DNA of 64,000 nucleotides from Minisyncoccota bacterium (GCA_018062965.1 JAGORG010000002.1:1860-65859), one strand, 5' to 3'. Positions 6,158 through 54,147 are shown, counted from the first letter of the stretch. Made by a program: numbers and translations. Notes: generated by a model from the letters alone, not told the origin.

Positions 6158-7774
6158 TTATGGCTGAGCTCTTGTGATTTCTTGGATTTCCTTCATGATA
6201 GCATCGTGGTCTTCTCCTGGTGTGCGCAGTTTTTCTTGGAGTTCTGTGATACGTTCTTTAAAGATTTCTCGTTTGTACGTTTTTACAAGATCACTGAGAT
6301 AATCATCCACATTTCCAAATGGACGCTCTTCTAGTCTGAACATTTCCTCTCCGATGATTGCTTCTGGAAATTGATCCATATCAAGTTGTAACTCTTGAAT
6401 ACTCTCATGGTTGTGAATGCCTTTTAAACGTATCAAAGCTATGAGCTCGCGAGTGACGCGTTCTTTTGCTGGAATACTAACTATTTTTACTTCTTCTTTT
6501 TGATCAATTACTTGAGCGAGTCCACGAACTAGTTCTTCTTGAAGTGTCTGTTCTCCTATGCCAGATTTTTGAGAAATAACTTTGATGAAATGCGCACGGT
6601 CAATTGGAGATTGTATAGCTTTTATAAACGGCAAAACCTCAACAACAATGCGACGCCCCTCTTCACGTTTGTCTTCTTTCGCGTCAATAATAGTTGCAAG
6701 TAGTTTTTCTATTACATGAACTTTAGATGCTAAAGCGGTTATCCATGCTTGTGGGTCATCTTTAATGAGATCTGCTGGGTCTTTTGTTCCAAGATCATCA
6801 ACCACATACACATCAAGCCCACCCAAAAGACAGAGCATTGCACTTTTCTTAAACGCGTTTTGCCCAGCACTATCTGTATCAAATGAAAGAATGACTTTGT
6901 CGCAAAAACGCTTGATGAGGTTGATGTGTTCATCGGTAAATGCAGTCCCAGACACAGCAACAGTATTGTGAACCCCTGCTTGGTAACTCATACACAAATC
7001 CATCTGCCCTTCAACGATAACCACTTCTTTTTTCTCATGCATTACTTTTTTTGCAGTGTCATATCCAAAGAGTATTTTTGATTTATGGTACAGATCAGTT
7101 TCTGGAGTGTTTACGTATTTACCTTGTGCCACACTCGGCTCCACAAACTGCGGCATGATGCGTCCAGAATACCCAACTGTGGCCCCAGAGATATTTCGTA
7201 TAGGAAACATGATACGTCCACGGAAACGGTCATAATATCCTTTTTCTGTTTTTATCATGAGCCCTGCGGCCTCCATCTCTTCAGGTTGATATCCGAGGGA
7301 CGCGAGTTTGATAAACAAATCTCTCCATTCGTTTTTTGCAAATCCAATATGAAATGTTGCAATAGTTTCCTCTGATAAACCTCGCTCAAGAAGGTACTGT
7401 TTTGCTTCGGGACTTTTGTGTAGATTAACTGTAAAGTGTTCTGTTGCATCTTTAAGCAGTGCAACAAGACGAGATTCTTCTTTGTTTCTTTGTGCGTCTT
7501 TTAGCGAGACACCTGCTCGATCTGCAAGTATTTTGAGCGCTTCATAAAAAGGTATGTTTTCTATTTTTTCTACGAATGTAAATATATCTCCATGCGCCTG
7601 ACACCCAAAGCAGTGAAAACTTTTTCGTTCTGGAGAGACATAAAACGATGGCGTCTTTTCGTTATGGAATGGGCACCGCGCACGAAACTGGGCACCTGAT
7701 TTTTCAAGACGTACATAAGTAGCAACCACATCTGTAATCGAGAGATTTTCCTTGATCTGGTCTTTAGGGTTCAT
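6158..7774 (-). CDS. dnaG: DNA primase
   Basis: Zinc-binding motif CPFHNEKTPSF...HCFGC, TOPRIM region. Start taken at MNPKDQ. Confidence 0.9.
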   Translation of the reverse strand: MNPKDQIKENLSITDVVATYVRLEKSGAQFRARCPFHNEKTPSFYVSPERKSFHCFGCQAHGDIFTFVEKIENIPFYEALKILADRAGVSLKDAQRNKEESRLVALLKDATEHFTVNLHKSPEAKQYLLERGLSEETIATFHIGFAKNEWRDLFIKLASLGYQPEEMEAAGLMIKTEKGYYDRFRGRIMFPIRNISGATVGYSGRIMPQFVEPSVAQGKYVNTPETDLYHKSKILFGYDTAKKVMHEKKEVVIVEGQMDLCMSYQAGVHNTVAVSGTAFTDEHINLIKRFCDKVILSFDTDSAGQNAFKKSAMLCLLGGLDVYVVDDLGTKDPADLIKDDPQAWITALASKVHVIEKLLATIIDAKEDKREEGRRIVVEVLPFIKAIQSPIDRAHFIKVISQKSGIGEQTLQEELVRGLAQVIDQKEEVKIVSIPAKERVTRELIALIRLKGIHNHESIQELQLDMDQFPEAIIGEEMFRLEERPFGNVDDYLSDLVKTYKREIFKERITELQEKLRTPGEDHDAIMKEIQEITRAQP

Positions 7775-19808: not shown

Positions 19809-20144
19809 AAATGTAGTTTGTATTAAGGTTAATGTGATTATTTGCGCTCGACTTCTTTTCGATGAAGACTCTTCTATCAAGAAAAGATAGATGTATGGTT
19901 ATCGCAACGCGTCACATAAACTGACTACACAAGGATATCCATAAGGAAATAATATGACTATTCTAGCAGATAAGATATGTTTTGTCAATGTTAGGATTTT
20001 TAAAATACATAATACAGATTCTTTTCTTTTTACTTTCCCGTCGAACTAAACGGCATACTTTTTTGCTAAAAAGTTGCCTCCCTCTCAACTCGCCAGTTTC
20101 CGAGAGTTAGTTCTCACGGGAAAGTGGAGTTTGTTACTATACAA

Positions 20145-20172
20145 AATAAAAAACCCGCCGAAACGGGTTTTC
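20145..20172 (-). terminator. hairpin aaacccgccgaaacgggttt preceded by an A-run
   Basis: Sits downstream of the minus-strand gene ending at 20194. Confidence 0.5.
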
Positions 20173-20193
20173 CGCCGTTGGGCGAGTTGCAGT

Positions 20194-20652
20194 TCAGTGC
20201 ACAGTCTGGATGCGCTTCTGGGCTTGCGCCACGAAGCAGTTCACCTGACCTTCACCTTCCAGCAAACAGAACGCGAGGAACGCGATACTGTCTGCGTCTT
20301 CCGTGGAAGGCGAACCCCACGCCGACTTTTTGGCCGTCTCAGCGAGAAGCTGGCGCTGACCGATGAGTTCGCGGTAGAAGTCGTCGACGTTGTTGTCGTC
20401 GCCGACGTTCTTCACGAGCTCGGGCAGGAGTGCCACGACCTTGGTCATCGCCGTTTTGCCGAAGATCCGCGAGAAGCAGGCCTCCAGCATTTCGGGAGTG
20501 ACGTCAGGGCGCAAGCGCACGGGTTCGTCCCAGTTGGTCATATAGGTCTCGTGGACCATCCTGAACACCTTCGATGCCAACTGCCTGTGAGGGAAGAAGG
20601 TCACGTCGGTGGGGTTTTGACGGAACTGGGAGAAGTTTTCAAAGAAGTTCAT
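20194..20652 (-). CDS. hypothetical protein (152 aa), start MNFFENF; GC-elevated
   Basis: AGGAGG lies 5 nt upstream of the ATG. Has its own promoter and terminator. GC is clearly higher than in flanking core genes. Confidence 0.55.
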   Translation of the reverse strand: MNFFENFSQFRQNPTDVTFFPHRQLASKVFRMVHETYMTNWDEPVRLRPDVTPEMLEACFSRIFGKTAMTKVVALLPELVKNVGDDNNVDDFYRELIGQRQLLAETAKKSAWGSPSTEDADSIAFLAFCLLEGEGQVNCFVAQAQKRIQTVH

Positions 20653-20703
20653 AGACCCTCCTCTACGGTTAGTGGCGGGATTGCCACAGTCTTGAACATA
20701 TAA

Positions 20704-20732
20704 AATATAGCACACTATTATGTAAAAGTCAA
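20704..20732 (-). promoter_or_regulatory. near-consensus sigma70 promoter TTGACT-17-TATATT
   Basis: The minus strand reads ttgacttttacataatagtgtgctatatt. Confidence 0.5.
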
Positions 20733-20761
20733 GTATGTAAGCCTATACCTACAAGGTATTT

Positions 20762-20793
20762 AAAAATAAAAAAACCGCCGGTGAGGGCGGTTG
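20762..20793 (-). terminator. hairpin aaccgccggtgagggcggtt preceded by an A-run
   Basis: Same style as the 20145 terminator. Confidence 0.5.
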
Positions 20794-20817
20794 TGGTTGT
20801 CTGACCGGCGCGGTCGA

Positions 20818-21111
20818 TCAGGCGGCAACGGGTTCGTCTTCTGCGACGAGACCTTCTTCGCCGTAGAGGAAGAACTGCGCGCCGGACTTGCTGTTCTTGC
20901 GGTATTCCGCGAGCGCCATCAGACCGGCGGCCTTGGTTTGGATGCTGCCCTGCATCAGGTCGACGTTGCCGTCCGGCACATCGTCAACGGTCTGCGGAGG
21001 CTTCGCACCCGGCGGCAGGCCACCAAAGATGAGGATGACAAACTTGTCGGCAGAGTTCTGGTCGGGACGGGCCTGGAAGACACCATCTTTCGTGTTGCGA
21101 TTGTTGTCCAT
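20818..21111 (-). CDS. hypothetical small protein (about 97 aa), high GC
   Basis: The ORF has its own promoter and terminator. Start taken at MDNNRN; an alternative ATG lies at 21165. Confidence 0.45.
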   Translation of the reverse strand: MDNNRNTKDGVFQARPDQNSADKFVILIFGGLPPGAKPPQTVDDVPDGNVDLMQGSIQTKAAGLMALAEYRKNSKSGAQFFLYGEEGLVAEDEPVAA

Positions 21112-21182
21112 GTCTGCTCCTTTTGTAGCAAATGTCCGTCTGGGCAATACGCCAGCTGAAAACATGAATGAACGAACAGAAT

Positions 21183-45935: not shown

Positions 45936-46679
45936 CTACTTGCTGATTACGATACCTCTTCCAGCGTAGTAACTTAGGAACTCTTTTTCTGATAGTTTAT
46001 GATTTATTTGAGTATTGTTACTGACGAAACCCGACGGGTTGTTTATACTTATTGTTTTATTGTTTAAATCATATCCAGTTACAAGAACTAAATGCCCACC
46101 TTTTTGATGTATTGGAGCAGTAGCATACCCTCGGATATTTGGATTCACAGAGATGATAACCAACCTTCCTTTTGACAGGGCGTAGCAGATCCCCTTCATG
46201 CTTAATTTTGTATAGATATCAGCATGTACATTATATTTTTTAATCCATTTCGCAAACTCTCTATACTTCATTGCAGATAGTTCTTTTTTACTTTCCGTAT
46301 ATACACCATGCAGCAGAGCATCTTCTGCGAGCAAAGCTGGTTTAATATTTTTGTTCTCAAAATGAGATAGTGCCATGGCAGTAGAAGCCATACCACACAT
46401 CGTAAACGCCCACTCCGCATATCTTTTAGGTGAACTAGCGCCGGTTTCTGCCCAATGTGGGTCGTTCAGTGGATCGAGTTCTTTTTTCAAACTCAGTTCT
46501 GCGTGCTCTGGTTTCGCGAATTGGCACACATATGAAATATCGTAACTAACCTTGTTAGATGTAGGAGAAAATTTTGTTACAAACTTGTAAACAATATTTT
46601 TTACCTCTTGAAGTATTCCATATATGATTCTCATTCGAGTTAGTATATCAGAGCTGTTTTTATGATATGACTTGTTCAT
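45936..46679 (-). CDS. peptidase C39-like domain protein (papain-like Cys/His)
   Basis: ...AEWAFTMCGMASTAMAL... with a downstream His in GGHLVLVTGYD, as in Peptidase_C39_2-like proteins. Confidence 0.55.
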   Translation of the reverse strand: MNKSYHKNSSDILTRMRIIYGILQEVKNIVYKFVTKFSPTSNKVSYDISYVCQFAKPEHAELSLKKELDPLNDPHWAETGASSPKRYAEWAFTMCGMASTAMALSHFENKNIKPALLAEDALLHGVYTESKKELSAMKYREFAKWIKKYNVHADIYTKLSMKGICYALSKGRLVIISVNPNIRGYATAPIHQKGGHLVLVTGYDLNNKTISINNPSGFVSNNTQINHKLSEKEFLSYYAGRGIVISK

Positions 46680-47678: not shown

Positions 47679-48053
47679 TTATTTACTGAGGTGTTCGTGG
47701 ATAAATTGCAGTTTGTCTCCGTTTCGAATAATTACATTTGTTCCCCGACCGCTTCCGCTCTTTTGTACCCCATCAACTATTCCCGACCAATTAAAGGTAT
47801 AGGTAATAGAAGCTGAATTTGAATCGGCGACTATGATCTTGAGGTCGGAAAGTGAATAAGTCTCGTTTTTAATTGAGCCCCAAGTGTTCTCAAAGGCTTT
47901 TTGAATAGCTTCAATACCTACAAAATCACCGTCCGTAAACCGGTATATGGCTTCAGAATGAACCAAACCAATAACATTAGAAAATACGTGGGAATTTGTA
48001 ACATCCTCGTACTTTTTTAAGAATTCTTTTATTTCTGATTCTGTGATGTTCAT
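47679..48053 (-). CDS. NTF2-like (SnoaL/DUF4440-like) small protein
   Basis: Size and alternating pattern are typical of the NTF2 fold. Weak. Confidence 0.4.
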   Translation of the reverse strand: MNITESEIKEFLKKYEDVTNSHVFSNVIGLVHSEAIYRFTDGDFVGIEAIQKAFENTWGSIKNETYSLSDLKIIVADSNSASITYTFNWSGIVDGVQKSGSGRGTNVIIRNGDKLQFIHEHLSK

Positions 48054-48214
48054 GGATTTTTTTAGGTACTCGGGTCTAGTTCGACACTTTTTTATTTTGG
48101 CGGAGATGGTGAGTTAGGTGCCTATAGGGTTAATCCGTGTAAGGTTATTCTAGCATCTTTGGCTTAGTCAGTTTGAGGATAGTGGGTTGGATAAATATAT
48201 TTCAAATGTTGACT

Positions 48215-48469
48215 CTAGTTTAGGGTAAACATTAAGTAAATAAAAGGTGCCCAACCTAAAAAGAAAATAATAAAAAAAGAAAAAATTAGTACCTTTTTTA
48301 AATTAGTGCGGAAAGTTTTACTTTTAACTACTTCTCTGACTTTGCTTATATTTTTATTGTCACCATAATTTTTTATGAAATATACATATACCCACTTAAT
48401 TATAGCTATAAGTCCTGCGAGGCTTATTATCACAAGAAACTGCTCAACAAAGGTTAAGTTATTATTCAT
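48215..48469 (-). CDS. small membrane protein (84 aa) in AT-rich islet
   Basis: Two hydrophobic helices. Very AT-rich codon usage. Confidence 0.4.
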   Translation of the reverse strand: MNNNLTFVEQFLVIISLAGLIAIIKWVYVYFIKNYGDNKNISKVREVVKSKTFRTNLKKVLIFSFFIIFFLGWAPFIYLMFTLN

Positions 48470-48602
48470 AGTAGTTAGTATAACAAAAGAGTTTGATGAG
48501 TATATATTTTTGGGAACCTTCGTAGAAGAATTATCTACGAAGATAAGGAGTTAAAGCCACTTGCTCAATAAAATGTTAAAATGTGAACTTTGAATTTACT
48601 TT

Positions 48603-49103
48603 TTACAGAGCATAATTCTTAGCTGGCTCTACAACCTCCTCCCATCCATAAACTTCTAATATACCTATTTTACTTGTATCAAAAGTTGGTAGAGGTGAAG
48701 GCAATTTACCAATAGAAACTAAGATTCCATACCTGTAGTTATAAGGTTCATTAAAATATGTAGATTCTATTTTTCTTAGGTCTGAAGTAAATTGTTTAAG
48801 TGTTGGATTCTTCTTAACTTCAAAAACTACGAAGTTATCTGAATTATTACCACGATGATGAATCGTAATATCAGGTCTTTGATTATTATATTTAACTAAC
48901 TCAACATCTAAATCATATTCTGGAAATTGTGTATGTAGTACCTGTCTTAGATGAGAACATATATTTAACTCCGAGGTATACCAAACCGAAGAATCATTAT
49001 CAGATATCCATTTTGCTGCATCTCTAACTTTTCTTTTGATTTCTTCTATATTCATAACTAAAAGCATAGCAAATGATAGTGGTCGAAATTTAAAAACCAT
49101 CAA
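48603..49103 (-). CDS. hypothetical protein (166 aa) in AT-rich islet
   Basis: Long ORF in a region of roughly 28% GC. Confidence 0.45.
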   Translation of the reverse strand: MMVFKFRPLSFAMLLVMNIEEIKRKVRDAAKWISDNDSSVWYTSELNICSHLRQVLHTQFPEYDLDVELVKYNNQRPDITIHHRGNNSDNFVVFEVKKNPTLKQFTSDLRKIESTYFNEPYNYRYGILVSIGKLPSPLPTFDTSKIGILEVYGWEEVVEPAKNYAL

Positions 49104-49166
49104 TTAAGATGGTTTTTAAATTCGTTTATTTTCCTACGCTCATCGAGCCCCAGAACCTAAACGACT

Positions 49167-49372
49167 TGGCGGTATTTGTTGGACAAAGTTCGAAAGTATT
49201 TTGCTGAAAATCCCGAAGAAGAAATCTGAATGGACTCGGCAGGGCGAAACAATTTGTCTGGGGGAAAGGATTCGCCCTGCCTCGGCTCTTTTCCCGCCCG
49301 CAGGAGGGGTCTGGGGAGGAATGCGGGCGGGTTTCGGACTGGGGGTTTTCGGATTTCAAAAATTCGCGGCTA
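49167..49372. repeat. IR-a' : 206 bp GC-rich repeat, inverted copy of 51355-51556 (about 99% identical)
   Basis: Direct comparison of the two stretches. Contains the hairpin cccgcccgca...tgcgggcggg. Ends at a TGGCGG junction. Confidence 0.9.
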
Positions 49373-49960
49373 GGACTTAATTATTATACAACGACCAGTA
49401 AATCCTTGCTCAAATTTTTGCAGAGACAAAAATTTGTACTGCCAGTTATATTCTGAACGGATAGATGTATGGTGAACATAAAAACCTTTCAATTTTCCAT
49501 TTTCTTCCTCAAAACCAACTATCAAAGCAAGGTGGCCACCGAATTTCTTCCAAAACAAAATTTTCTCTTTCAGCGTTTTATAATTCTCAAAAGCCCACTT
49601 GATTGAAATTAACGGGAGAAAATTTTGTTTTAGCGCTTCGCGCAATTCGGTGGCACTTACATTTTCACGATTGACGCCAGAAAAGCCAAACTCTTTCGCT
49701 AGCCGAGCAAGCCCGCCATGACTCCAACCAGTAGAATCCTTATATGCGCCAATCTCAACACCTTTTTTGATATATTGCGCAATTGACGGCGAAAGAGGTT
49801 TAGCTTTTGATTGCAAGAAGGCGTCAATCGCCATTTTGAGGCACAAAATTCCACATGAGGATTTTTCCCAATACTTTGCGTCCTCAAAACTTTCAAAACC
49901 TAAATTTTTCCATTGCGACAAATCCCATTTTTGCGAATAAAATGGCGCTTCCATTTTCAT
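49370..49960 (-). CDS. peptidase C39-like domain protein (paralog of 45936-46679)
   Basis: N-terminus FYSQKWD...SCGILCLKMAI and a downstream His in GGHLALIVGF. Confidence 0.55.
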   Translation of the reverse strand: MKMEAPFYSQKWDLSQWKNLGFESFEDAKYWEKSSCGILCLKMAIDAFLQSKAKPLSPSIAQYIKKGVEIGAYKDSTGWSHGGLARLAKEFGFSGVNRENVSATELREALKQNFLPLISIKWAFENYKTLKEKILFWKKFGGHLALIVGFEEENGKLKGFYVHHTSIRSEYNWQYKFLSLQKFEQGFTGRCIIIKS

Positions 49961-49965
49961 AAAAT

Positions 49966-51066
49966 TTATTCCGTGTCGTAGGAAGTTTTGAGCTTTTGTT
50001 CTTTCTCAAATCTTTCTAGTGCTAATTGAATCAAGCGATCTATAAGCTCGGTATAAGAAATTCCGGTTGCCTCCCATAATTTTGGATACATGCTAATCGA
50101 AGTAAATCCGGGGATAGTATTGATTTCATTGACCAAAATCTCCCCGTTTTCTTTAAGGAAGAAATCAACACGACCAAGTCCCTCACACGCAAGAGTTTTG
50201 AAAGTTTTAACTGCAAGTATTTGTACTTTCTTTACAATTTCTTCGGGCAACTTTGCGGGTATCTCAAGTGCCGCGCCATGCTCGTCTATGTATTTTGCTT
50301 CGTAAGAATAGAAATCGTGATTAGAAATGACTTCTCCAGGCACAGAAGCAATCGGATCGTCATTTCCGAGAACGGAACATTCAATTTCTCGTCCTTTAAT
50401 ATTTTCCTCGATGAGAATTTTCCTGTCGTACTTAAACGCCTCTCGGATTGCCTTATCAAAATCCTTTTCCTCGCTGACTTTACTCACCCCAACCGAAGAA
50501 CCCATATTTGCGGGCTTTACAAAAAATGGCAATCCTAAATTTTTGACGGCTTCCTCGTAAGTTGGAATATCTTTTTCTTTGCAAGTCAAAAATTTTCCTA
50601 TCGGTATTCCTGCATCTCTTAGCAATCTCTTCATTACATCTTTGTCCATTCCAACCGCCGAACCTAAAACGCTTGCTCCAACAAAAGGAATATTGGCGAG
50701 TTTTAGCAAACCTTGCATTGTTCCGTCCTCACCGAATGGTCCATGTAATATCGGAAAAACTACATCAATAGATTTGTCTGATTCGTGAGTATCAAGATTT
50801 GCTATTCTTCCGTCGCTTTCTGGAACAAGAGCAACACTCTGACTTGTTTCGTTATTGAGTTTAATCAATTTTGGATTTCCGCTATTTAGAAAAAATTTTG
50901 AACTGTCCGCCAAAAGCCATTTTCCCTTTTTATCCACGCCAATAAGAATTGGTTCGTATTTTTCTTTATCAATAGCGTCAATAACATTTTTGGCGGATTG
51001 CAAAGAAACCTCGTGCTCCGCTGATTTTCCGCCAAAAATTATTCCGACTTTAATTTTCTTTTTCAT
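49966..51066 (-). CDS. ddl: D-alanine--D-alanine ligase
   Basis: ATP-grasp fold. N-terminus GIIFGGKSAEHEVSL. Omega-loop SYEAKY retains the Tyr. Codon usage differs from the core genes. Confidence 0.85.
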   Translation of the reverse strand: MKKKIKVGIIFGGKSAEHEVSLQSAKNVIDAIDKEKYEPILIGVDKKGKWLLADSSKFFLNSGNPKLIKLNNETSQSVALVPESDGRIANLDTHESDKSIDVVFPILHGPFGEDGTMQGLLKLANIPFVGASVLGSAVGMDKDVMKRLLRDAGIPIGKFLTCKEKDIPTYEEAVKNLGLPFFVKPANMGSSVGVSKVSEEKDFDKAIREAFKYDRKILIEENIKGREIECSVLGNDDPIASVPGEVISNHDFYSYEAKYIDEHGAALEIPAKLPEEIVKKVQILAVKTFKTLACEGLGRVDFFLKENGEILVNEINTIPGFTSISMYPKLWEATGISYTELIDRLIQLALERFEKEQKLKTSYDTE

Positions 51067-51068
51067 AA

Positions 51069-51269
51069 TTATTTCTTGAGCAAGTCATCAACCGAAACTT
51101 CAAGGGCTTTCGCAATCCTTTGAATTGTTTCGATAGTAGGGTTGGGGCTTTCGTCCAACTCTATTTTTACAACAGTATTTAAAGATAAATCGGCAAGTTT
51201 TGAGAGTTTATCTTGCGAAAGCCCTTTCTCTTGCCGAAATCGTTTGATGTTCTTGCCTATTGCTGACAT
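51069..51269 (-). CDS. XRE-family helix-turn-helix transcriptional regulator (66 aa)
   Basis: HTH_3 pattern IKRFRQEKGLSQDKLSKLADLSLNTVVKIE. Confidence 0.75.
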   Translation of the reverse strand: MSAIGKNIKRFRQEKGLSQDKLSKLADLSLNTVVKIELDESPNPTIETIQRIAKALEVSVDDLLKK

Positions 51270-51354
51270 AGTAGATTATAATGTATGGAAAGTGATATAA
51301 TACTTGTATGACTTGCAAATCAATAATATCAGTTTTCCATTCTTTTTTCAAATG

Positions 51355-51556
51355 TAGCCGCGAATTTTTGAAATCCGAAAACCCCCAGCCCGAAACCCGC
51401 CCGCATTCCTCCCCAGACCCCTCCTGCGGGCGGGAAAAGAGCCGAGGCAGGGCGAATCCTTTCCCCCAGACAAATTGTTTCGCCCTGCCGAGTCCATTCA
51501 GATTTCTTCTTCGGGATTTTCAGCAAAATACTTTCGAACTTTGTCCAACAAATACC
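51355..51556. repeat. IR-a: inverted copy of 49167-49372
   Basis: Sequence comparison. One mismatch seen. Confidence 0.9.
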
Positions 51557-51674
51557 GCCAGAATTCGGAATTCAAATTTCCCGAAAAAATATGGTCGGCG
51601 CGAAGCGCCGTCTGTTCTGTATTCCCCCCACAAAATCCTGATTCTGAAAGGATTCGCCACGCTCCGCGTGGCTC
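51555..51674. repeat. IR-b: 120 bp inverted copy of the 3' end of the recombinase gene (53085-53204)
   Basis: Exact reverse complement. Encodes a pseudo C-terminus ...EPRGAWRILSESGFCGGNTEQTALRADHIF on the minus strand. Confidence 0.9.
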
Positions 51675-51701
51675 CTCGTTTGCCAATACAATTTCAATTT
51701 T

Positions 51702-53213
51702 ATGAATAATCACACCAGAAAGTTTTTCATATACACTCGCAAATCAACCGACACAGAAGATCGGCAAGTGAGAAGCATTTCAGATCAACTGGCCGAACTC
51801 AAAGAATTAGCGGTTAAAGAGCAAATTGAGGTCGTTGATATTTTTGTAGAAAAACAAACCGCTAAAAGTCCGGGTCGGCCAGTATTTAATGAAATGCTTC
51901 TCCGTATCGAGCAAGGCGAAGCAAACGGAATTTTAGCGTGGCACCCCGACCGATTAGCGAGAAATAGTGTTGATGGTGGCAAAATTATCTACTTGCTCGA
52001 TACCGAAAAACTTGCCGAACTGAAGTTCCCAACTTTCTGGTGTGATCCGACACCGCAAGGCAAGTTCATGCTTTCAATCGCTTTTTCGCAATCCAAGTAT
52101 TATGTTGATAATCTCTCGGAAAATATTAAGCGTGGTCATCGCAACAAAGTGAAAGACGGAATATGGCCTCAAATGTCTCCGCTCGGATATGTAAATGTGA
52201 AAGGTGCTGGAATAGTACCCGATGAGAATATTGCTCCGTTAATCAAGAAAACATTTGAGGCATACTCGTCTGGGTCTTTCACTTTGCGCCAACTCCGCGA
52301 CAAATTTAACGGACTTGGCTTGAAGCGAAAAAGCGGAAAGGAACTTGCGGTGTCGAACTATCAGCAAATCCTCAAAAATCCTATTTACACCGGTCTGATG
52401 AGGTATAACGGAGAGATTTTTGAGGGAAAGCACGAACCGATTATCACAAAGAAACTTTTTGATTCCGTTCAAGAAGTGATGATGAGAAAATCTAAGCCGA
52501 AAGGTAGAGGCTTGAAAGATTATCTATACAGGGGATTTTTCCGTTGCGGAGAATGCGGTTGTTTCATTACTACCGAAACACAGAAAGGCCATAACTATCT
52601 CCGCTGTACCAAACGGAAAAATCCTTGTGAGCAAAAATATGTCCGCGAGGAAATCATCACTTCTCAAATCAAAACGGAATTACAAAAAGTTTCTTTGCCA
52701 CTCGATTGGGCAAACTGGATGATTGTCGAAAACGAGAAAGATCGACAATCGGAAGTCCAATCGAGCGAGATTTTTTCTCAGAAGACAAAAGATGAAATTT
52801 CTCTTTTGGATTCCAAAATTGAGAAGCTGATGAACGCCTATTTGGAAAACGTTTTATCACTTGAGGAATATCGTGATTCTAAAAACAAGTTGGTTGCCTC
52901 AAAACAGCTTCTCAAAGAGAAATTCTCATTTTTTGAGAAAAAATCTCATAATCGGTTCGAACTTGCTGATAGATTCATAAAATCAAACGTAGAATTGGCA
53001 AACGAGGGAACAAATGAAGATTTTCTTCATTTGTTCAAAAAAGTCGGTTCGAACTTTTTAATTAAAGATCGAACCGTACTTTTTGAGCCACGCGGAGCGT
53101 GGCGAATCCTTTCAGAATCAGGATTTTGTGGGGGGAATACAGAACAGACGGCGCTTCGCGCCGACCATATTTTTTCGGGAAATTTGAATTCCGAATTCTG
53201 GCGGAGAATGTGA
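51702..53213 (+). CDS. large serine recombinase (resolvase N-domain, recombinase domain, zinc ribbon)
   Basis: N-terminus YTRKSTDTEDRQVRSISDQ with the catalytic Ser. RCGECGC...C...C zinc ribbon. About 503 aa. Confidence 0.85.
   Translation: MNNHTRKFFIYTRKSTDTEDRQVRSISDQLAELKELAVKEQIEVVDIFVEKQTAKSPGRPVFNEMLLRIEQGEANGILAWHPDRLARNSVDGGKIIYLLDTEKLAELKFPTFWCDPTPQGKFMLSIAFSQSKYYVDNLSENIKRGHRNKVKDGIWPQMSPLGYVNVKGAGIVPDENIAPLIKKTFEAYSSGSFTLRQLRDKFNGLGLKRKSGKELAVSNYQQILKNPIYTGLMRYNGEIFEGKHEPIITKKLFDSVQEVMMRKSKPKGRGLKDYLYRGFFRCGECGCFITTETQKGHNYLRCTKRKNPCEQKYVREEIITSQIKTELQKVSLPLDWANWMIVENEKDRQSEVQSSEIFSQKTKDEISLLDSKIEKLMNAYLENVLSLEEYRDSKNKLVASKQLLKEKFSFFEKKSHNRFELADRFIKSNVELANEGTNEDFLHLFKKVGSNFLIKDRTVLFEPRGAWRILSESGFCGGNTEQTALRADHIFSGNLNSEFWRRM
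53085..53204. repeat. IR-b': inverted partner of 51555-51674, inside the recombinase 3' coding end
   Basis: Ends with ...ctggcgg exactly at the tRNA 3' end. Confidence 0.9.
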
Positions 53214-53288
53214 GATTCGAACTCACGGAACCGGTAAAGGTTCGACGGTTTAGTAAACCGTTGGTTTAAACCACTCACCCAATTCTCC
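53202..53288 (-). tRNA. type II tRNA (long variable arm, G73, Ser-like) with an apparent ACT anticodon
   Basis: Acceptor GGAGAAT/ATTCTCC. T-arm GTGAGTTCGAATCTCAC. Anticodon stem ACGGT/ACCGT with loop TTACTAA. Needs a tRNAscan check. Confidence 0.6.
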
Positions 53289-53304
53289 ATATATTTTGGA
53301 AACG

Positions 53305-53493: not shown

Positions 53494-53581
53494 GCGGAGA
53501 CGATGAGATTCGAACTCATGAAGGGCGTAAACCCTTGCCTCGTTAGCAGTGAGGTGCCTTCGACCAGCTCAGCCACGTCTC
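53494..53581 (-). tRNA. tRNA-Ser (GCT)
   Basis: Anticodon loop CTGCTAA. Long variable arm AAGGG..CCCTT. T-arm CATGAGTTCGAATCTCATG. Discriminator G73. Confidence 0.8.
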
Positions 53582-53823
53582 CATTCTTCTATTACTTTTC
53601 TAAAACCGTTACCTCCTTTATACGACTTAAGAAATTTTTCTACTTTTCTTACTTCTTCGATTGAGGAAAACTCTTTTGAGCAAAGTAGACTCCATTCACC
53701 GCGAGAAGTAGTACGTCCACCTGTATGACTCTTATGTCTTTGTGTTCGCTTAGAAAGTTCAAGACACGAACCAGTGTAATGCTTACCTGTATTCTTGTCT
53801 TGAAGAACATAAACGAAAGCCAT
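53569..53823 (-). CDS. GIY-YIG nuclease domain protein (YhbQ/UPF0213-like)
   Basis: FVYVLQDKNTGKHYTGSCLELSKRTQRHKS...GEWSLL resembles the YhbQ family. The stop overlaps the tRNA-Ser 5' end. Confidence 0.6.
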   Translation of the reverse strand: MAFVYVLQDKNTGKHYTGSCLELSKRTQRHKSHTGGRTTSRGEWSLLCSKEFSSIEEVRKVEKFLKSYKGGNGFRKVIEEWRRG

Positions 53824-53839
53824 TTTTGTAGTATAAACC

Positions 53840-53906
53840 CTTGCCTCGTTAGCAGCTCGCCCCGCTAAGCGGGGTAAAGTGCCTTCGACCAGCTCAGCCA
53901 CGTCTC
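53840..53906 (-). pseudogene. partial duplicate of the tRNA-Ser(GCT) 5' half with a 23 nt hairpin insertion
   Basis: GGAGACGTGGCTGAGCTGGTCGAAGGCAC[TTTACCCCGCTTAGCGGGGCGAG]CTGCTAACGAGGCAAGGGTTTA, then diverges into the GIY-YIG gene. Confidence 0.6.
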
Positions 53907-54147
53907 CGTATTATTTTTGTCTAAAACACTTATTGTTGTGCACGCTTTGATATATATCTTATCAGGTCTTCGCTGTAAGCTCGCATCAAAAGTTTGCTAA
54001 CTTTTGATATCTTCGGAGCCAAGCTTCTCGAGCAACGTCTCCGTATTTTTATACAATTTACCTACACACTTCCTGCACGTTTTTATTCAATATTTTCCTA
54101 CTGAATGTGTTGTATCTTATCACAAAACACCCTTCTGTGCTACCGAA

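Follow-up and report, generated by a model that had tools for sequence, protein, structure and literature searches.

Large serine recombinases (LSRs) integrate DNA by recombining an attP with an attB site through a 2-bp staggered crossover, and excision requires a directionality factor. The geometry of LSR sites, with a 5-bp offset of the motif between attB and attP, is reportedly described in work by Rutherford and Van Duyne. The 3′ end of a tRNA gene is a usual target for tyrosine integrases and an unusual one for LSRs. Serine invertases are enzymes of about 190 aa that act on ~26-bp sites with an enhancer and leave gene content constant. In the 2-micron plasmid, which replicates autonomously, the recombinase FLP is a tyrosine recombinase. 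Gene exchange is poorly known in the Patescibacteria (CPR), a group of tiny genomes that makes up a large share of bacterial diversity. Tycheposons are cargo-carrying, tRNA-integrating elements of Prochlorococcus; 910 of 937 use tyrosine recombinases, a minority use LSRs, and many carry replication genes (bioRxiv 10.1101/2020.12.28.424599).

The window considered here is the whole 64-kb stretch of DNA that was analysed (64,000 nucleotides from a Minisyncoccota bacterium, GCA_018062965.1, JAGORG010000002.1:1860-65859). Positions 49167-53204 are best read, with a probability of roughly 0.85, as a 4.0-kb integrative element that an LSR inserted at the 3′ end of a tRNA-Ser gene, that consists of two repeat-bracketed modules, and whose ddl cargo has spread between lineages. 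Its parts run in the order rc(X), cargo, X·Y, LSR, rc(Y), where rc marks the reverse complement of an arm, and L097 is a related contig with an empty site:

49087-49122, no strand: terminator-like hairpin in the B-side host DNA
49109-49166, no strand: host DNA 3′ of the tRNA gene, B side of attL; 89% identical to L097 6279-6336, which there abuts the tRNA gene
49167-49172, plus strand: attL core TGGCGG, a direct repeat of the attR core; single copy in the L097 empty site
49167-49372, no strand: outer arm rc(X), 206 bp, with P′ half-site GCGGTATTTGTTGGACAAAGTTCGAA
49370-49960, minus strand: C39-like papain-fold cysteine peptidase, 196 aa, cargo gene 3; stop codon within the repeat arm
49966-51066, minus strand: D-alanine--D-alanine ligase of the DdlA type, 366 aa, cargo gene 2 (Pfam, NCBIfam, PDB)
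51069-51269, minus strand: XRE/Cro-type HTH regulator, 66 aa, cargo operon gene 1 (HTH_3, PHROG)
51323-51351, minus strand: promoter-like site TTGAAA-17-TATTAT with TG, from a consensus scan; faces XRE-ddl-C39 and lies in the unique cargo segment
51355-51560, no strand: central arm X, 206 bp, with two strong GC hairpins
51555-51560, minus strand: inverted internal att core CCGCCA at the X/Y junction, from the sequence and the junction alignment across loci
51555-51674, no strand: arm Y, 120 bp, 5′ of the recombinase gene, with a terminator-like hairpin at 51596-51610
51702-53213, plus strand: large serine recombinase, 503-codon ORF; stop codon inside the tRNA gene
53085-53204, no strand: outer arm rc(Y), 120 bp, P half-site side of attR
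53199-53204, plus strand: attR core TGGCGG, the final six bases of the tRNA (CCGCCA)
53199-53288, minus strand: tRNA-Ser (anticodon ACU), integration target and B′ half-site (ARAGORN; Rfam tRNA 56.7 bits)

Both modules are bracketed by perfect inverted repeats. The 206-nt pair (49167-49372 and 51355-51560) is 100% complementary, as is the 120-nt pair (51555-51674 and 53085-53204), between whose copies the recombinase lies. TGGCGG is present at each element end, with an inverted copy in the centre, and the outer ends taken together, rc(Y)+rc(X), are the exact reverse complement of the central X·Y junction, the 6-bp overlap included. The P′ half-site motif GCGGTATTTGTTGGACAAAGTTCGAA occurs twice in the window against 0 expected occurrences. 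A preliminary description of this DNA had recognized a ddl, an XRE regulator and a C39-like peptidase between 206-bp inverted repeats, and the ORFs and the full complementarity of the arms bear this out. It had also taken the segment bounded by these repeats as the mobile module; the cargo is indeed so bounded, but the mobile unit is larger, reaching beyond the cargo to 49167-53204 and taking in the recombinase.

All three cargo ORFs are on the minus strand with intergenic gaps of only 5 and 2 nt, indicating a single operon. The scan for promoter-like sites returned 9 against 9.2 expected, which is chance level and makes promoter assignments weak. The region of the central X arm (51340-51700) has a fold z-score of -5.2, and an Rfam scan of the whole window matched nothing but tRNAs, indicating that the GC-rich repeat is no known RNA. 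No older, degenerate copies of the element half-sites were found in the low-GC patch of the window to the left of attL.

The insertion at the tRNA gene is bounded by direct repeats of TGGCGG (49167-49172 and 53199-53204). The predicted attB, consisting of the left flank, TGGCGG and the tRNA gene, is matched exactly in the related metagenome contig JACCDG010313062.1 (L097). There, a left flank of 89% identity runs straight into a tRNA-Ser(ACU) gene (92%), with one TGGCGG only. This exact empty site indicates a 4,032-bp insertion in the window. L097 represents a related organism and not the same strain, and the difference from it presumably reflects either insertion or precise loss; either would imply mobility. 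Transposition of the DDE type, with 6 bp of duplicated target, was considered too and rejected: the recombinase is of the serine type, and the two termini are not inverted repeats of one another.

In the window element, attB, attL, attR and the internal site share a 6-bp core; a junction alignment across family loci reduces what attL, attR and the central site have in common to GCGG. In 39 of 50 tRNA half-sites, a TTYRAA motif is centred 18 nt from the core; in the window it is the TTCGAA of the tRNA T-arm, also at 18 nt. In the element half-sites the motif lies 23 nt from the core (41/46 and 22/24, the latter in attL). The half-site spacing of attB and attP is thus offset by 5 bp: the motif, which each site has in one of its halves only, lies farther out in attP. 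Across the loci compared, no conserved motif marks the host-side (B) half of attL. The central X/Y core and its flanks correspond to the attP that excision would restore. The predicted junction of the excision circle has the same sequence as the internal site, on the opposite strand. In principle, the internal inverted attP copy might recombine with a free tRNA-Ser(GCU) gene 290 bp away.

The recombinase contains Resolvase (PF00239, residues 9-154), Recombinase (PF07508, 178-260) and Zn_ribbon_recom (PF13408, 275-327) domains. It matches the integrase family phrog_95 (E 4e-77), with weak matches to CcrB and XisF models. All LSR matches to it in phage and plasmid collections are less than 30% identical; scans of viral contigs returned recombinase relatives of only 25-26% identity and no Ddl, indicating that the element is not a known virus. 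An exact look-up of the protein gave no match because the ORF crosses the repeat into the tRNA gene, where assemblies break. Its final ~40 codons overlap rc(Y). The idea that these last 40 codons supply an integration-dependent functional C-terminus was rejected, since no third-position bias is seen in them (0.19/0.23/0.21; catalytic part 0.10/0.04/0.32; n=11).

Homologous recombinases number more than 7,500, the best 120 being 79-92% identical, and at least 285 species-representative genomes encode a relative. The same double-inverted-repeat layout, rc(X)-cargo-X·Y-rec-rc(Y), is found at 80 related loci in species genomes. Of 69 testable loci, 57 have a tRNA-Ser gene directly against rc(Y); its anticodon is GGA, GCU, UGA, CGA or ACU. 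Repeat arms within one element are ~99% identical, and in line with the element reading, independent assemblies break precisely at the repeats. Elements span ~3.5-8.5 kb and lack phage and conjugation genes; their cargo is variable, mainly restriction-modification and defence with some miscellaneous genes. A literature search found no published account of this element family or of its double-repeat layout, and no description of a retained internal inverted attP copy.

The main reading can be put as the following model. The LSR would insert the element site-specifically at the tRNA-Ser 3′ end, with the crossover falling within the 6-bp TGGCGG. The two modules, each with its perfect inverted repeats, are joined at the centre by an inverted copy of the attachment region of the element: the cargo module lies between the X arms, with XRE first and accessory genes after it, and the recombinase module between the Y arms. 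The element may travel as an excised circle with two inverted 320-bp repeats and hence two attP sites, and the repeats may permit inversion and exchange of modules. XRE may control the cargo operon and possibly the recombinase too. The family is proposed to have picked up the ddl-C39 pair and carried it between lineages; the ligase would make D-Ala-D-Ala for the peptidoglycan precursor of the host, as a backup, a replacement or an increase in dosage.

An unlikely alternative is that the locus is composite, with a recombinase unit Y-rec-rc(Y) and a non-autonomous cargo unit rc(X)-cargo-X inserted successively at the same core. The central attP copy would then be a mere junction between units, and this alternative is partly compatible with the main reading. 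It draws on a solo recombinase unit between two inverted tRNA-Ser genes (L010), on an X-flanked unit located apart from the recombinase (L052), and on the shuffling of XRE against the ddl-C39 pair. The Y arms are also less than 97% identical to each other in 18 of 64 loci, some at 72-86%, which suggests joined modules of different origin. However, nearly all loci have the two units side by side in one constant order, both are missing together from the empty site of L097, and the rc(Y)+rc(X) ends mirror the central X·Y exactly, as expected if one circle had been opened at either of its two inverted sites.

More speculatively, the layout may represent a new mechanistic class of serine-recombinase element that always retains a full inverted attP and has a route through single-strand folding or isomerisation. 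This is a doubtful proposal. One strand might fold into two adjacent hairpins (X/rc(X) and Y/rc(Y)) that, when stacked, would form a duplex attP. Single-stranded DNA imported through the competence/pilus machinery of Patescibacteria could in this way be turned into a substrate for recombination, much as folded attC sites or the CTX-phage attP are. Another possibility is that the retained attP lets elements isomerise in the manner of the 2-micron plasmid and swap cassettes with one another. Were the new-class proposal true, the family would be one of the chief channels by which genes pass between lineages of these tiny symbionts, ddl and other essential cell-wall genes included, and a ready-made integration tool for Patescibacteria symbionts.

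It is improbable that the segment serves chiefly for phase variation, as an inverton or shufflon in which the recombinase inverts the cargo or its own gene and so toggles ddl and the peptidase. The perfect inverted repeats around both modules would suit such a switch, as would a match to phrog_125 ("DNA invertase") in the N-terminal domain of the recombinase. Cargo and recombinase are also each seen in both orientations among relatives (inverted cargo in L055 and L093, inverted recombinase in L021 and L024). Orientation is nearly fixed, however: of 22 relatives, 21 have XRE adjoining the central X arm, and the recombinase gene points to the tRNA gene in 57 loci and away from it in 5. The regulator and the sole promoter-like site lie inside the cargo segment that would be flipped, so that inversion would not uncouple expression. 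Furthermore, cargo content differs wholly between relatives, the entire unit is missing from the otherwise conserved tRNA locus of L097, and the enzyme is a 500-aa integrase-type LSR and not a ~190-aa invertase.

It is very improbable that ddl is native and vertically inherited, with the repeats and recombinase as incidental neighbours. Composition bears on this in part, and the degree of difference depends on the measure used. The tetranucleotide distance of the element is 0.420 against 0.178±0.030 in 4-kb host windows (z 8.1), a value that 0 of 48 windows reach; for the cargo alone z is 5.9 (0/106). CpG observed/expected is 1.1-1.35 in the cargo against 0.94±0.15. Pooled cargo codons differ significantly from the rest for CCG (0.32 vs 0.15), GCG (0.28 vs 0.19), CGG (0.14 vs 0.04), AAA among Lys codons (0.75 vs 0.63) and GAA among Glu codons (0.59 vs 0.76), and the G-statistic of the cargo block is 160 per 1000 codons, most host blocks lying at 35-100. 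The synonymous-codon likelihood of each gene, in contrast, falls inside window variance (z -1.0 to +0.1), as a native gene would. By tetranucleotides the element is clearly foreign; the non-native codon usage proposed earlier holds for pooled codons, in the directions named, and gene by gene stays within window variance.

A native origin can also point to the ddl-C39 pair in ordinary chromosomal contexts elsewhere, for example as an operon in L102, which shows the pair to be native to some Patescibacteria, and to a tblastn search that found no second ddl in the 64-kb window. Against it stand the empty site, the outlying tetranucleotides and the relatives of the Ddl, whose homologs lie in unrelated, non-syntenic gene contexts. 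The Ddl is 87-94% identical across lineages whose backbone proteins are at 35-57%. It is 87% identical to that of a Paceibacterium in which PilM, PilB, PilT and PilC are 35, 46, 57 and 48% identical, and 88% identical to that of a Berkelbacteria contig, with MsrA and MsrB at 37-49%. The XRE-ddl-C39 trio recurs on 2,035-bp contigs that end in the same repeats, there with 87% and 83% identity behind an XRE only 35% identical. The ddl gene is also found directly 3′ of tRNA-Ser in recombinase-less islands, or beside a Y/recombinase remnant. An identity far above that of the pilus proteins, together with these islands beside tRNA-Ser, indicates from sequence comparison that ddl probably spread horizontally between lineages. 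Acquisition of the cargo on a recombinase-associated module, as first suggested, is thus upheld by the empty site, the Ddl contexts and the tetranucleotide outlier; neither synteny with the Ddl of close relatives nor a composition wholly within variance was found.

The ligase itself matches Dala_Dala_lig_N and Dala_Dala_lig_C (E 3e-38 and 5e-76) and scores 531.5 bits against the NCBIfam equivalog NF002525 (cutoff 457). Its closest solved relatives are DdlA enzymes, with full-length alignment at E about 1e-127. The omega-loop Tyr governs ligase specificity, and the omega-loop HDFYSYEAKYIDE aligns to SEFYAYDTKYIDD in the two best-scoring solved ligases, 7u56 and 3q1k. The FYSYEAKY motif is retained, in agreement with the preliminary argument that the Tyr of SYEAKY favours D-Ala-D-Ala. 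By sequence, the protein is best assigned as a genuine DdlA-type D-Ala-D-Ala ligase.

The accompanying analogy with van-type resistance does not hold up, and a glycopeptide-resistance module with a ligase of altered specificity on a mobile element is extremely improbable. The presence of a ligase on a recombinase-associated element recalls such modules, as does a sister element whose cargo is XRE-ddl-VanY/M15, a pairing of ddl with a VanY/M15-type peptidase. Nevertheless, the Ddl passes the D-Ala-D-Ala equivalog, keeps FYSYEAKY, has DdlA enzymes as closest solved relatives, and misses every Van cutoff widely (VanA 257/775, VanB 254/750, D-Ala-D-Lac 314/550, VanG 345/495, D-Ala-D-Ser 306/520). 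The element contains only XRE, Ddl, C39-like and LSR genes; vanH, vanT, vanX, vanR and vanS are absent from it. Lastly, an assembly artefact (a chimeric or palindromic mis-join) has negligible probability. The perfect repeats, at 206 and 120 bp, are longer than the k-mers in common use, and short-read contigs end there, but the same architecture occurs in about 60 independent assemblies from different projects and in 0.7-1 Mb contigs deposited as whole chromosomes (OY969413.1, OZ246398.1), with arms that co-vary within loci and differ between them.

The product of 49370-49960 is only a marginal match to Peptidase_C39_2 (PF13529), with 25.7 bits (cutoff 24). Among 41 homologs, C36 and H143 never vary, and the AlphaFold model has a pLDDT of 92.4. 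The best Foldseek matches are the C39-like peptidase 3erv and the peptidase domains of ComA and PCAT1 (probability 1.0, TM about 0.5). The family has 157 detectable members, nearly all unnamed or from Patescibacteria. No signal peptide is visible, and neither the element nor its relatives contain an ABC transporter or bacteriocin-like gene; the partner is ddl. The protein is a predicted cytoplasmic papain-fold cysteine peptidase. In the sister element a VanY/M15 peptidase takes its place, from which a substrate ending in D-Ala would be predicted. The XRE regulator (51069-51269) matches HTH_3 with 53.5 bits as well as PHROG transcriptional regulator/repressor families, and is a conserved component of the element family.

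Taken as an integrative element, the locus packs a recombinase, a regulator and cargo into ~4 kb, with a well-defined attB (the tRNA-Ser 3′ end) and attP. The family, whose recombinase has thousands of metagenomic matches, moves restriction-modification and defence genes and here would have carried a core enzyme of peptidoglycan-precursor synthesis across lineages; such element-borne transfer would explain the foreign look of the window ddl. The presence or absence of ddl in metabolic reconstructions of CPR is accordingly not safely read as vertical inheritance. The natural integrase and its att pair are also a possible genetic tool for nearly intractable organisms.

Among known proteins, the DdlA ligases of Salmonella (3q1k, 3i12) resemble the window Ddl along their full length; they differ in that the window gene lies on a mobile element, shares its operon with XRE and is paired with a CPR-specific papain-fold peptidase. 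Peptidase C39, whose bacteriocin-processing domains in ComA and PCAT1 cleave double-glycine leader peptides within or beside an ABC exporter, and the C39-like 3erv of B. anthracis share the papain-like fold with Cys and His, whereas the window protein is a stand-alone 196-aa polypeptide with no ABC transporter. Serine-invertase switches (Hin, Gin and shufflon-like systems) likewise place a serine recombinase beside segments bounded by inverted repeats; in contrast to them, the window family varies its cargo, holds a near-fixed orientation and forms a unit that is an insertion.

LSR elements (phiC31, Bxb1, A118, SCCmec CcrAB and XisF fdxN) have the same resolvase-recombinase-zinc ribbon architecture, a similarly short core identity in attL, attR and attP, and the same 5-bp half-site offset. 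The window recombinase is distant from every LSR in the phage and plasmid collections, and its element is unlike those in targeting a tRNA 3′ end, in its small size and freedom from phage and conjugation genes, in having no recognised recombination directionality factor, and in keeping, when integrated, a complete inverted attP region and two long perfect repeat pairs.

Tycheposons are similar as small, modular tRNA-gene elements of streamlined genomes, with variable cargo that includes defence genes, and with islands that also contain tandem arrays and remnants devoid of a recombinase. Their description does not mention a double-repeat or internal-attP layout, and "inverted repeat" appears there only in a reference title (bioRxiv 10.1101/2020.12.28.424599). 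The window element differs from them in its LSR, its lack of a replication gene, its host clade and its double-repeat layout, and the resemblance is functional only. The 2-micron plasmid offers the closest likeness in form: the excised element would be a circle of two unique segments parted by a pair of perfect inverted repeats with a recombinase site in each, and both isomers of each segment occur among relatives. The window element differs in using an LSR, in having no replication gene and in having one repeat split by integration, and the likeness to the plasmid is one of analogy, not homology.

Three minus-strand open reading frames (ORFs) fill positions 49370-51269, with intergenic gaps of 5 and 2 nt. 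The preliminary description placed these XRE, ddl and C39-like genes between 206-bp inverted repeats, and this arrangement holds: the repeat is exact and the ORFs occupy the span given there. A second inverted repeat brackets a gene for a large serine recombinase (LSR), and a tRNA-Ser gene adjoins its outer end.

Features of the element and its target tRNA gene
49167-49372 and 51355-51560: 206-bp inverted repeat, arms X, 100% complementary
49370-49960, minus strand: C39-like protein, 196 aa (Peptidase_C39_2, 25.7 bits, just over the cutoff of 24)
49966-51066, minus strand: Ddl, 366 aa (both D-Ala-D-Ala ligase domains, E 3e-38 and 5e-76)
51069-51269, minus strand: XRE/HTH_3 regulator, 66 aa (HTH_3, 53.5 bits)
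51555-51674 and 53085-53204: 120-bp inverted repeat, arms Y, perfect
between the Y arms: LSR, 503 codons (Resolvase, Recombinase and Zn-ribbon domains)
53199-53288, minus strand: tRNA-Ser (anticodon ACU)

The central 320 nt (51355-51674) consist of X followed by Y with a 6-nt overlap, CCGCCA, while the left and right outer arms are the reverse complements rc(X) and rc(Y). As a consequence, TGGCGG stands as a direct repeat at the ends (49167-49172 and 53199-53204) and as an inverted copy in the centre (51555-51560); the same core forms the final six bases of the tRNA-Ser(ACU) gene. The X·Y region is hairpin-rich (fold z -5.2 and -3.5) with terminator-like stems in Y, and an Rfam scan matched no family to it.

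A 29-nt probe for the predicted unoccupied junction (left flank, TGGCGG and tRNA) found one exact match in a metagenome collection, contig JACCDG010313062.1 (L097). Its positions 6279-6342 match window 49109-49172 at 89%, and 6337-6429 match 53199-53291 at 92%, leaving flank and tRNA contiguous with a single TGGCGG common to both. This contiguity indicates a 4,032-bp insertion in the window with ends exactly as predicted, and, on this alignment, 49167-53204 appears to be the inserted unit relative to L097. Independent short-read assemblies of the same cargo end 30 nt into each X arm (L001 equals window 49343-51384), the expected product of a genuine repeat. Directly left of attL lies a low-GC patch at 48000-49100 (0.27-0.31 vs 0.43; tetranucleotide distance 0.53); at the corresponding position, the gene content of L097 differs. 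Its ORFs 48215-48469 and 48603-49103 have no Pfam or PHROG match, and the latter none in NCBIfam; the patch probably represents an older island on the downstream side of the target tRNA.

Alignment of junctions from ~50 loci identifies GCGG, often TGGCGG, as common to attL, attR and the inverted X/Y junction. The tRNA acceptor and T arm lie right of the attR core and GCGGTRTKYDTTGKACRAAGTTCGAA right of the attL core, and the host side of attL shows no conservation in this alignment. In the tRNA half-site, the centre of a TTYRAA motif lies 18 nt from the core (39/50); the corresponding distance in the element half-site is 23 nt (41/46 central sites, 22/24 attL sites). A hallmark of LSRs is that the zinc-ribbon-domain motif lies 5 bp further out in attP than in attB; taken with these offsets, the T-arm TTCGAA appears to serve as the attB motif.

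The target tRNA-Ser (53199-53288, minus strand) has a predicted ACU anticodon in the loop UUACUAA and scores 56.7 bits against the Rfam tRNA model. Serine tRNAs with A34 are unusual in bacteria. Several Paceibacteria loci (L030, L063, L068, L072) have this tRNA-Ser(ACU) too, and its conservation in L097 is 92%. In the window, 290 bp separate it from a normal tRNA-Ser(GCU). Between the latter (53494-53582) and a partial tRNA copy is a 110-aa GIY-YIG nuclease ORF (53569-53901, minus strand), the 5' part of tRNA-Ser(GCU) being duplicated at 53874-53907 (34 nt at 94% identity, with an indel beyond them). The segment 53494-53907 looks like a small homing-endonuclease insertion with a duplicated target.

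The last ~40 LSR codons lie inside rc(Y), and the stop codon falls within the tRNA gene. Variability in this tail is flat by codon position (0.19/0.23/0.21, vs 0.10/0.04/0.32 in the catalytic part), so Y seems to be maintained as DNA sequence rather than as protein. Along 53085-53213, the ORF has no stop before the att core and terminates at a TGA inside the tRNA gene; in the circular form, it would extend 20 codons further into rc(X). LSR homologs range from 500 to 647 aa in databases, apparently because no stop codon precedes the att core.

Joined, the outer arms rc(Y)+rc(X) reproduce the central X·Y exactly on the opposite strand. After excision, the circle would thus have two inverted 320-bp repeats, one att site in each, with the cargo and the recombinase gene on separate segments between them. 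Related loci display both orientations: L055 and a ddl-bearing sister element (L093) have an inverted cargo, and L021 and L024 have an inverted recombinase module, in which Y is preceded by tRNA-Ser and an uninterrupted rc(Y)·rc(X) follows downstream. In L010, the recombinase module sits between two inverted tRNA-Ser genes, the expected product of the internal site recombining with a second tRNA-Ser. The two Y arms are <97% identical in 18/64 loci (some 72-86%), a divergence that points to the joining of modules from different elements.

The LSR has >7,500 homologs (E<1e-20), the best 120 at 79-92% identity. Relatives are encoded by 285 stretches among one-genome-per-species contigs, and X, Y, tRNAs and proteins were mapped onto the best 80 (78-93% identical), whose hosts include Paceibacterota, Nomura-, Uhr-, Levyi-, Morani-, Kaiser- and Saccharibacteria. 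The order rc(X), cargo, X·Y, recombinase, rc(Y) recurs nearly everywhere among these 80. The outer end of rc(Y) overlaps a tRNA-Ser 3' end in 57/69 loci with enough flank (anticodons GGA 19, GCU 16, UGA 14, CGA 7, ACU 1). Within a locus, Y arms have a median identity of 99.2% (n=64) and X arms of 99.6% (n=23), against only 70-97% between loci. Cargo segments span 1.5-6.4 kb, with an XRE gene first, adjoining the central X arm, in 21/22. They carry HpaII or DpnII restriction-modification pairs, AAA_15/AbiEii-like ATPases, GmrSD, HerA-type ATPases, RadC or membrane proteins; ddl is absent from all of the best 80.

Tandem arrays hold further elements of double-inverted-repeat design (L051 11632-14994; L066 1125-5083; L031 3529-7438; L076), with recombinases 39-58% identical to that of the window. 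The second element of L051 abuts a tRNA ending in CCACCA, not CCGCCA, and this suggests that sister families target other tRNAs. Some MAGs carry two element copies on different contigs (L016 and L066; L041 and L077). Several species-representative MAGs with the element bear the labels Bdellovibrionales, Gammaproteobacteria, Bacteroidota or Actinomycetota (L008, L009, L015, L016, L047, L053 and others), which could mean that CPR contigs were mis-binned or mislabelled, or that the element has a broader range of hosts. Every LSR in phage and plasmid collections is <30% identical to the window recombinase, which CcrB and XisF models match weakly.

The ddl gene occurs in other contexts, including islands without a recombinase.

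Recombinase-free ddl islands
L088: tRNA-Ser(CGA), ddl 55 nt downstream
L090: tRNA-Ser(UGA), DpnI, NucS-like gene, ddl
L095: tRNA-Ser(GCU), B3_4-domain gene, ddl, C39

In L004 and L005, ddl directly adjoins a remnant of Y and the recombinase 3' end, and in L102 a ddl-C39 pair occupies an ordinary chromosomal neighbourhood. The two genes are neighbours in L095/L096, L102/L103 and L098-L100, and many C39-like homologs come from contigs equal in length to those of Ddl homologs, which suggests that the contigs are shared. Several sequencing runs yielded the 2,035-bp contigs L098-L100, which carry XRE-ddl-C39 and are bounded by the same 30-nt inverted termini; their Ddl and C39 are 87% and 83% identical to those of the window, with XRE only 35%, indicating a ddl-cargo lineage that diversified and swapped regulators. 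The sister element L093/L094 encodes XRE-ddl-VanY/M15 between X arms, VanY/M15 being a non-orthologous peptidase in the C39-like position. Top Ddl matches, at 76-89% identity, bear the labels Berkelbacteria, Moraniibacteriota, Saccharimonadales and even Nanoarchaeota. Ddl is 87% identical between the window and the L095 organism, whereas PilM, PilB, PilT and PilC are 35, 46, 57 and 48%; against the Berkelbacteria contig L004, Ddl is 88%, versus 37% for MsrA and 49% for MsrB. Overall, ddl and the peptidase appear to travel, and to travel together.

Context and composition agree with the acquisition of ddl proposed in the preliminary description, and not with the refuting outcome set out there (shared synteny, composition within genome variance): Ddl contexts differ, and tetranucleotide distance is decisive, at 0.420 for the element vs 0.178±0.030 in 48 host 4-kb windows (z 8.1, 0/48 reach it) and z 5.9 for the cargo alone (0/106). 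The non-native codon usage also claimed there stands for the pooled cargo, which shifts significantly in the directions named for Pro, Arg, Ser, Leu, Glu, Gln and Gly, but not for single genes, whose synonymous-codon likelihoods are unremarkable (z -1.0 to +0.1). The cargo block scores 160 per 1000 codons vs 35-100 in most host blocks, equalled or exceeded only by rpoB/rpoC and blocks overlapping the 46-53 kb island. CpG observed/expected is 1.1-1.35 vs 0.94±0.15. Elsewhere, two ORFs at 20074-21159 (plus strand) have GC 0.55-0.60 (genome 0.43) and strongly atypical codon usage (z -2.3, -3.5).

An analogy with van-type resistance elements is rejected. Ddl scores above the cutoff of the NCBIfam equivalog for D-Ala-D-Ala ligase (531.5 bits vs 457) and falls far short of all Van ligase cutoffs; its best solved relatives are DdlA enzymes (E ~1e-127), and the FYSYEAKY stretch is kept, in line with the earlier reading of the omega-loop Tyr as favouring D-Ala-D-Ala.

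The C39-like family is small, with 157 detectable members, essentially all unnamed or from Patescibacteria, with C36 and H143 invariant among homologs. A confident model of the protein (pLDDT 92.4) has as its closest structural counterparts, all at TM ~0.5, a B. anthracis C39-like peptidase, ComA/PCAT1 peptidase domains, the phytochelatin-synthase-like Alr0975 and staphopains; it is predicted to be a papain-fold cysteine enzyme without a transporter partner. A second, host-backbone Peptidase_C39_2 paralog (45936-46679, minus strand; 247 aa, E 1e-14), 21% identical to the element copy, has no ddl beside it.

The window encodes rpoBC, gatAB, ligA, a type IV pilus operon and a Mur ligase, gene content indicating that the host makes peptidoglycan, and contains no second ddl within its 64 kb. 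Given the enzyme assignment and the VanY-type replacement in the sister element, the cargo most likely supplies D-Ala-D-Ala for the host precursor, as replacement, backup or extra dosage, and the C39-like peptidase probably acts on a D-Ala-terminated substrate.

Full-text literature searching turned up no account of the double-repeat layout, nor of any LSR element that occupies tRNA-Ser in Patescibacteria. The closest functional analogues are tycheposons, which mostly use a tyrosine recombinase and for which the double-repeat layout is not reported (bioRxiv 10.1101/2020.12.28.424599). The predicted excised form bears a formal likeness to the 2-micron plasmid, a circle in which two inverted repeats part two segments. 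The element falls among known LSR integrative elements and tRNA-linked islands, and its distinguishing feature is the internal inverted attP copy.
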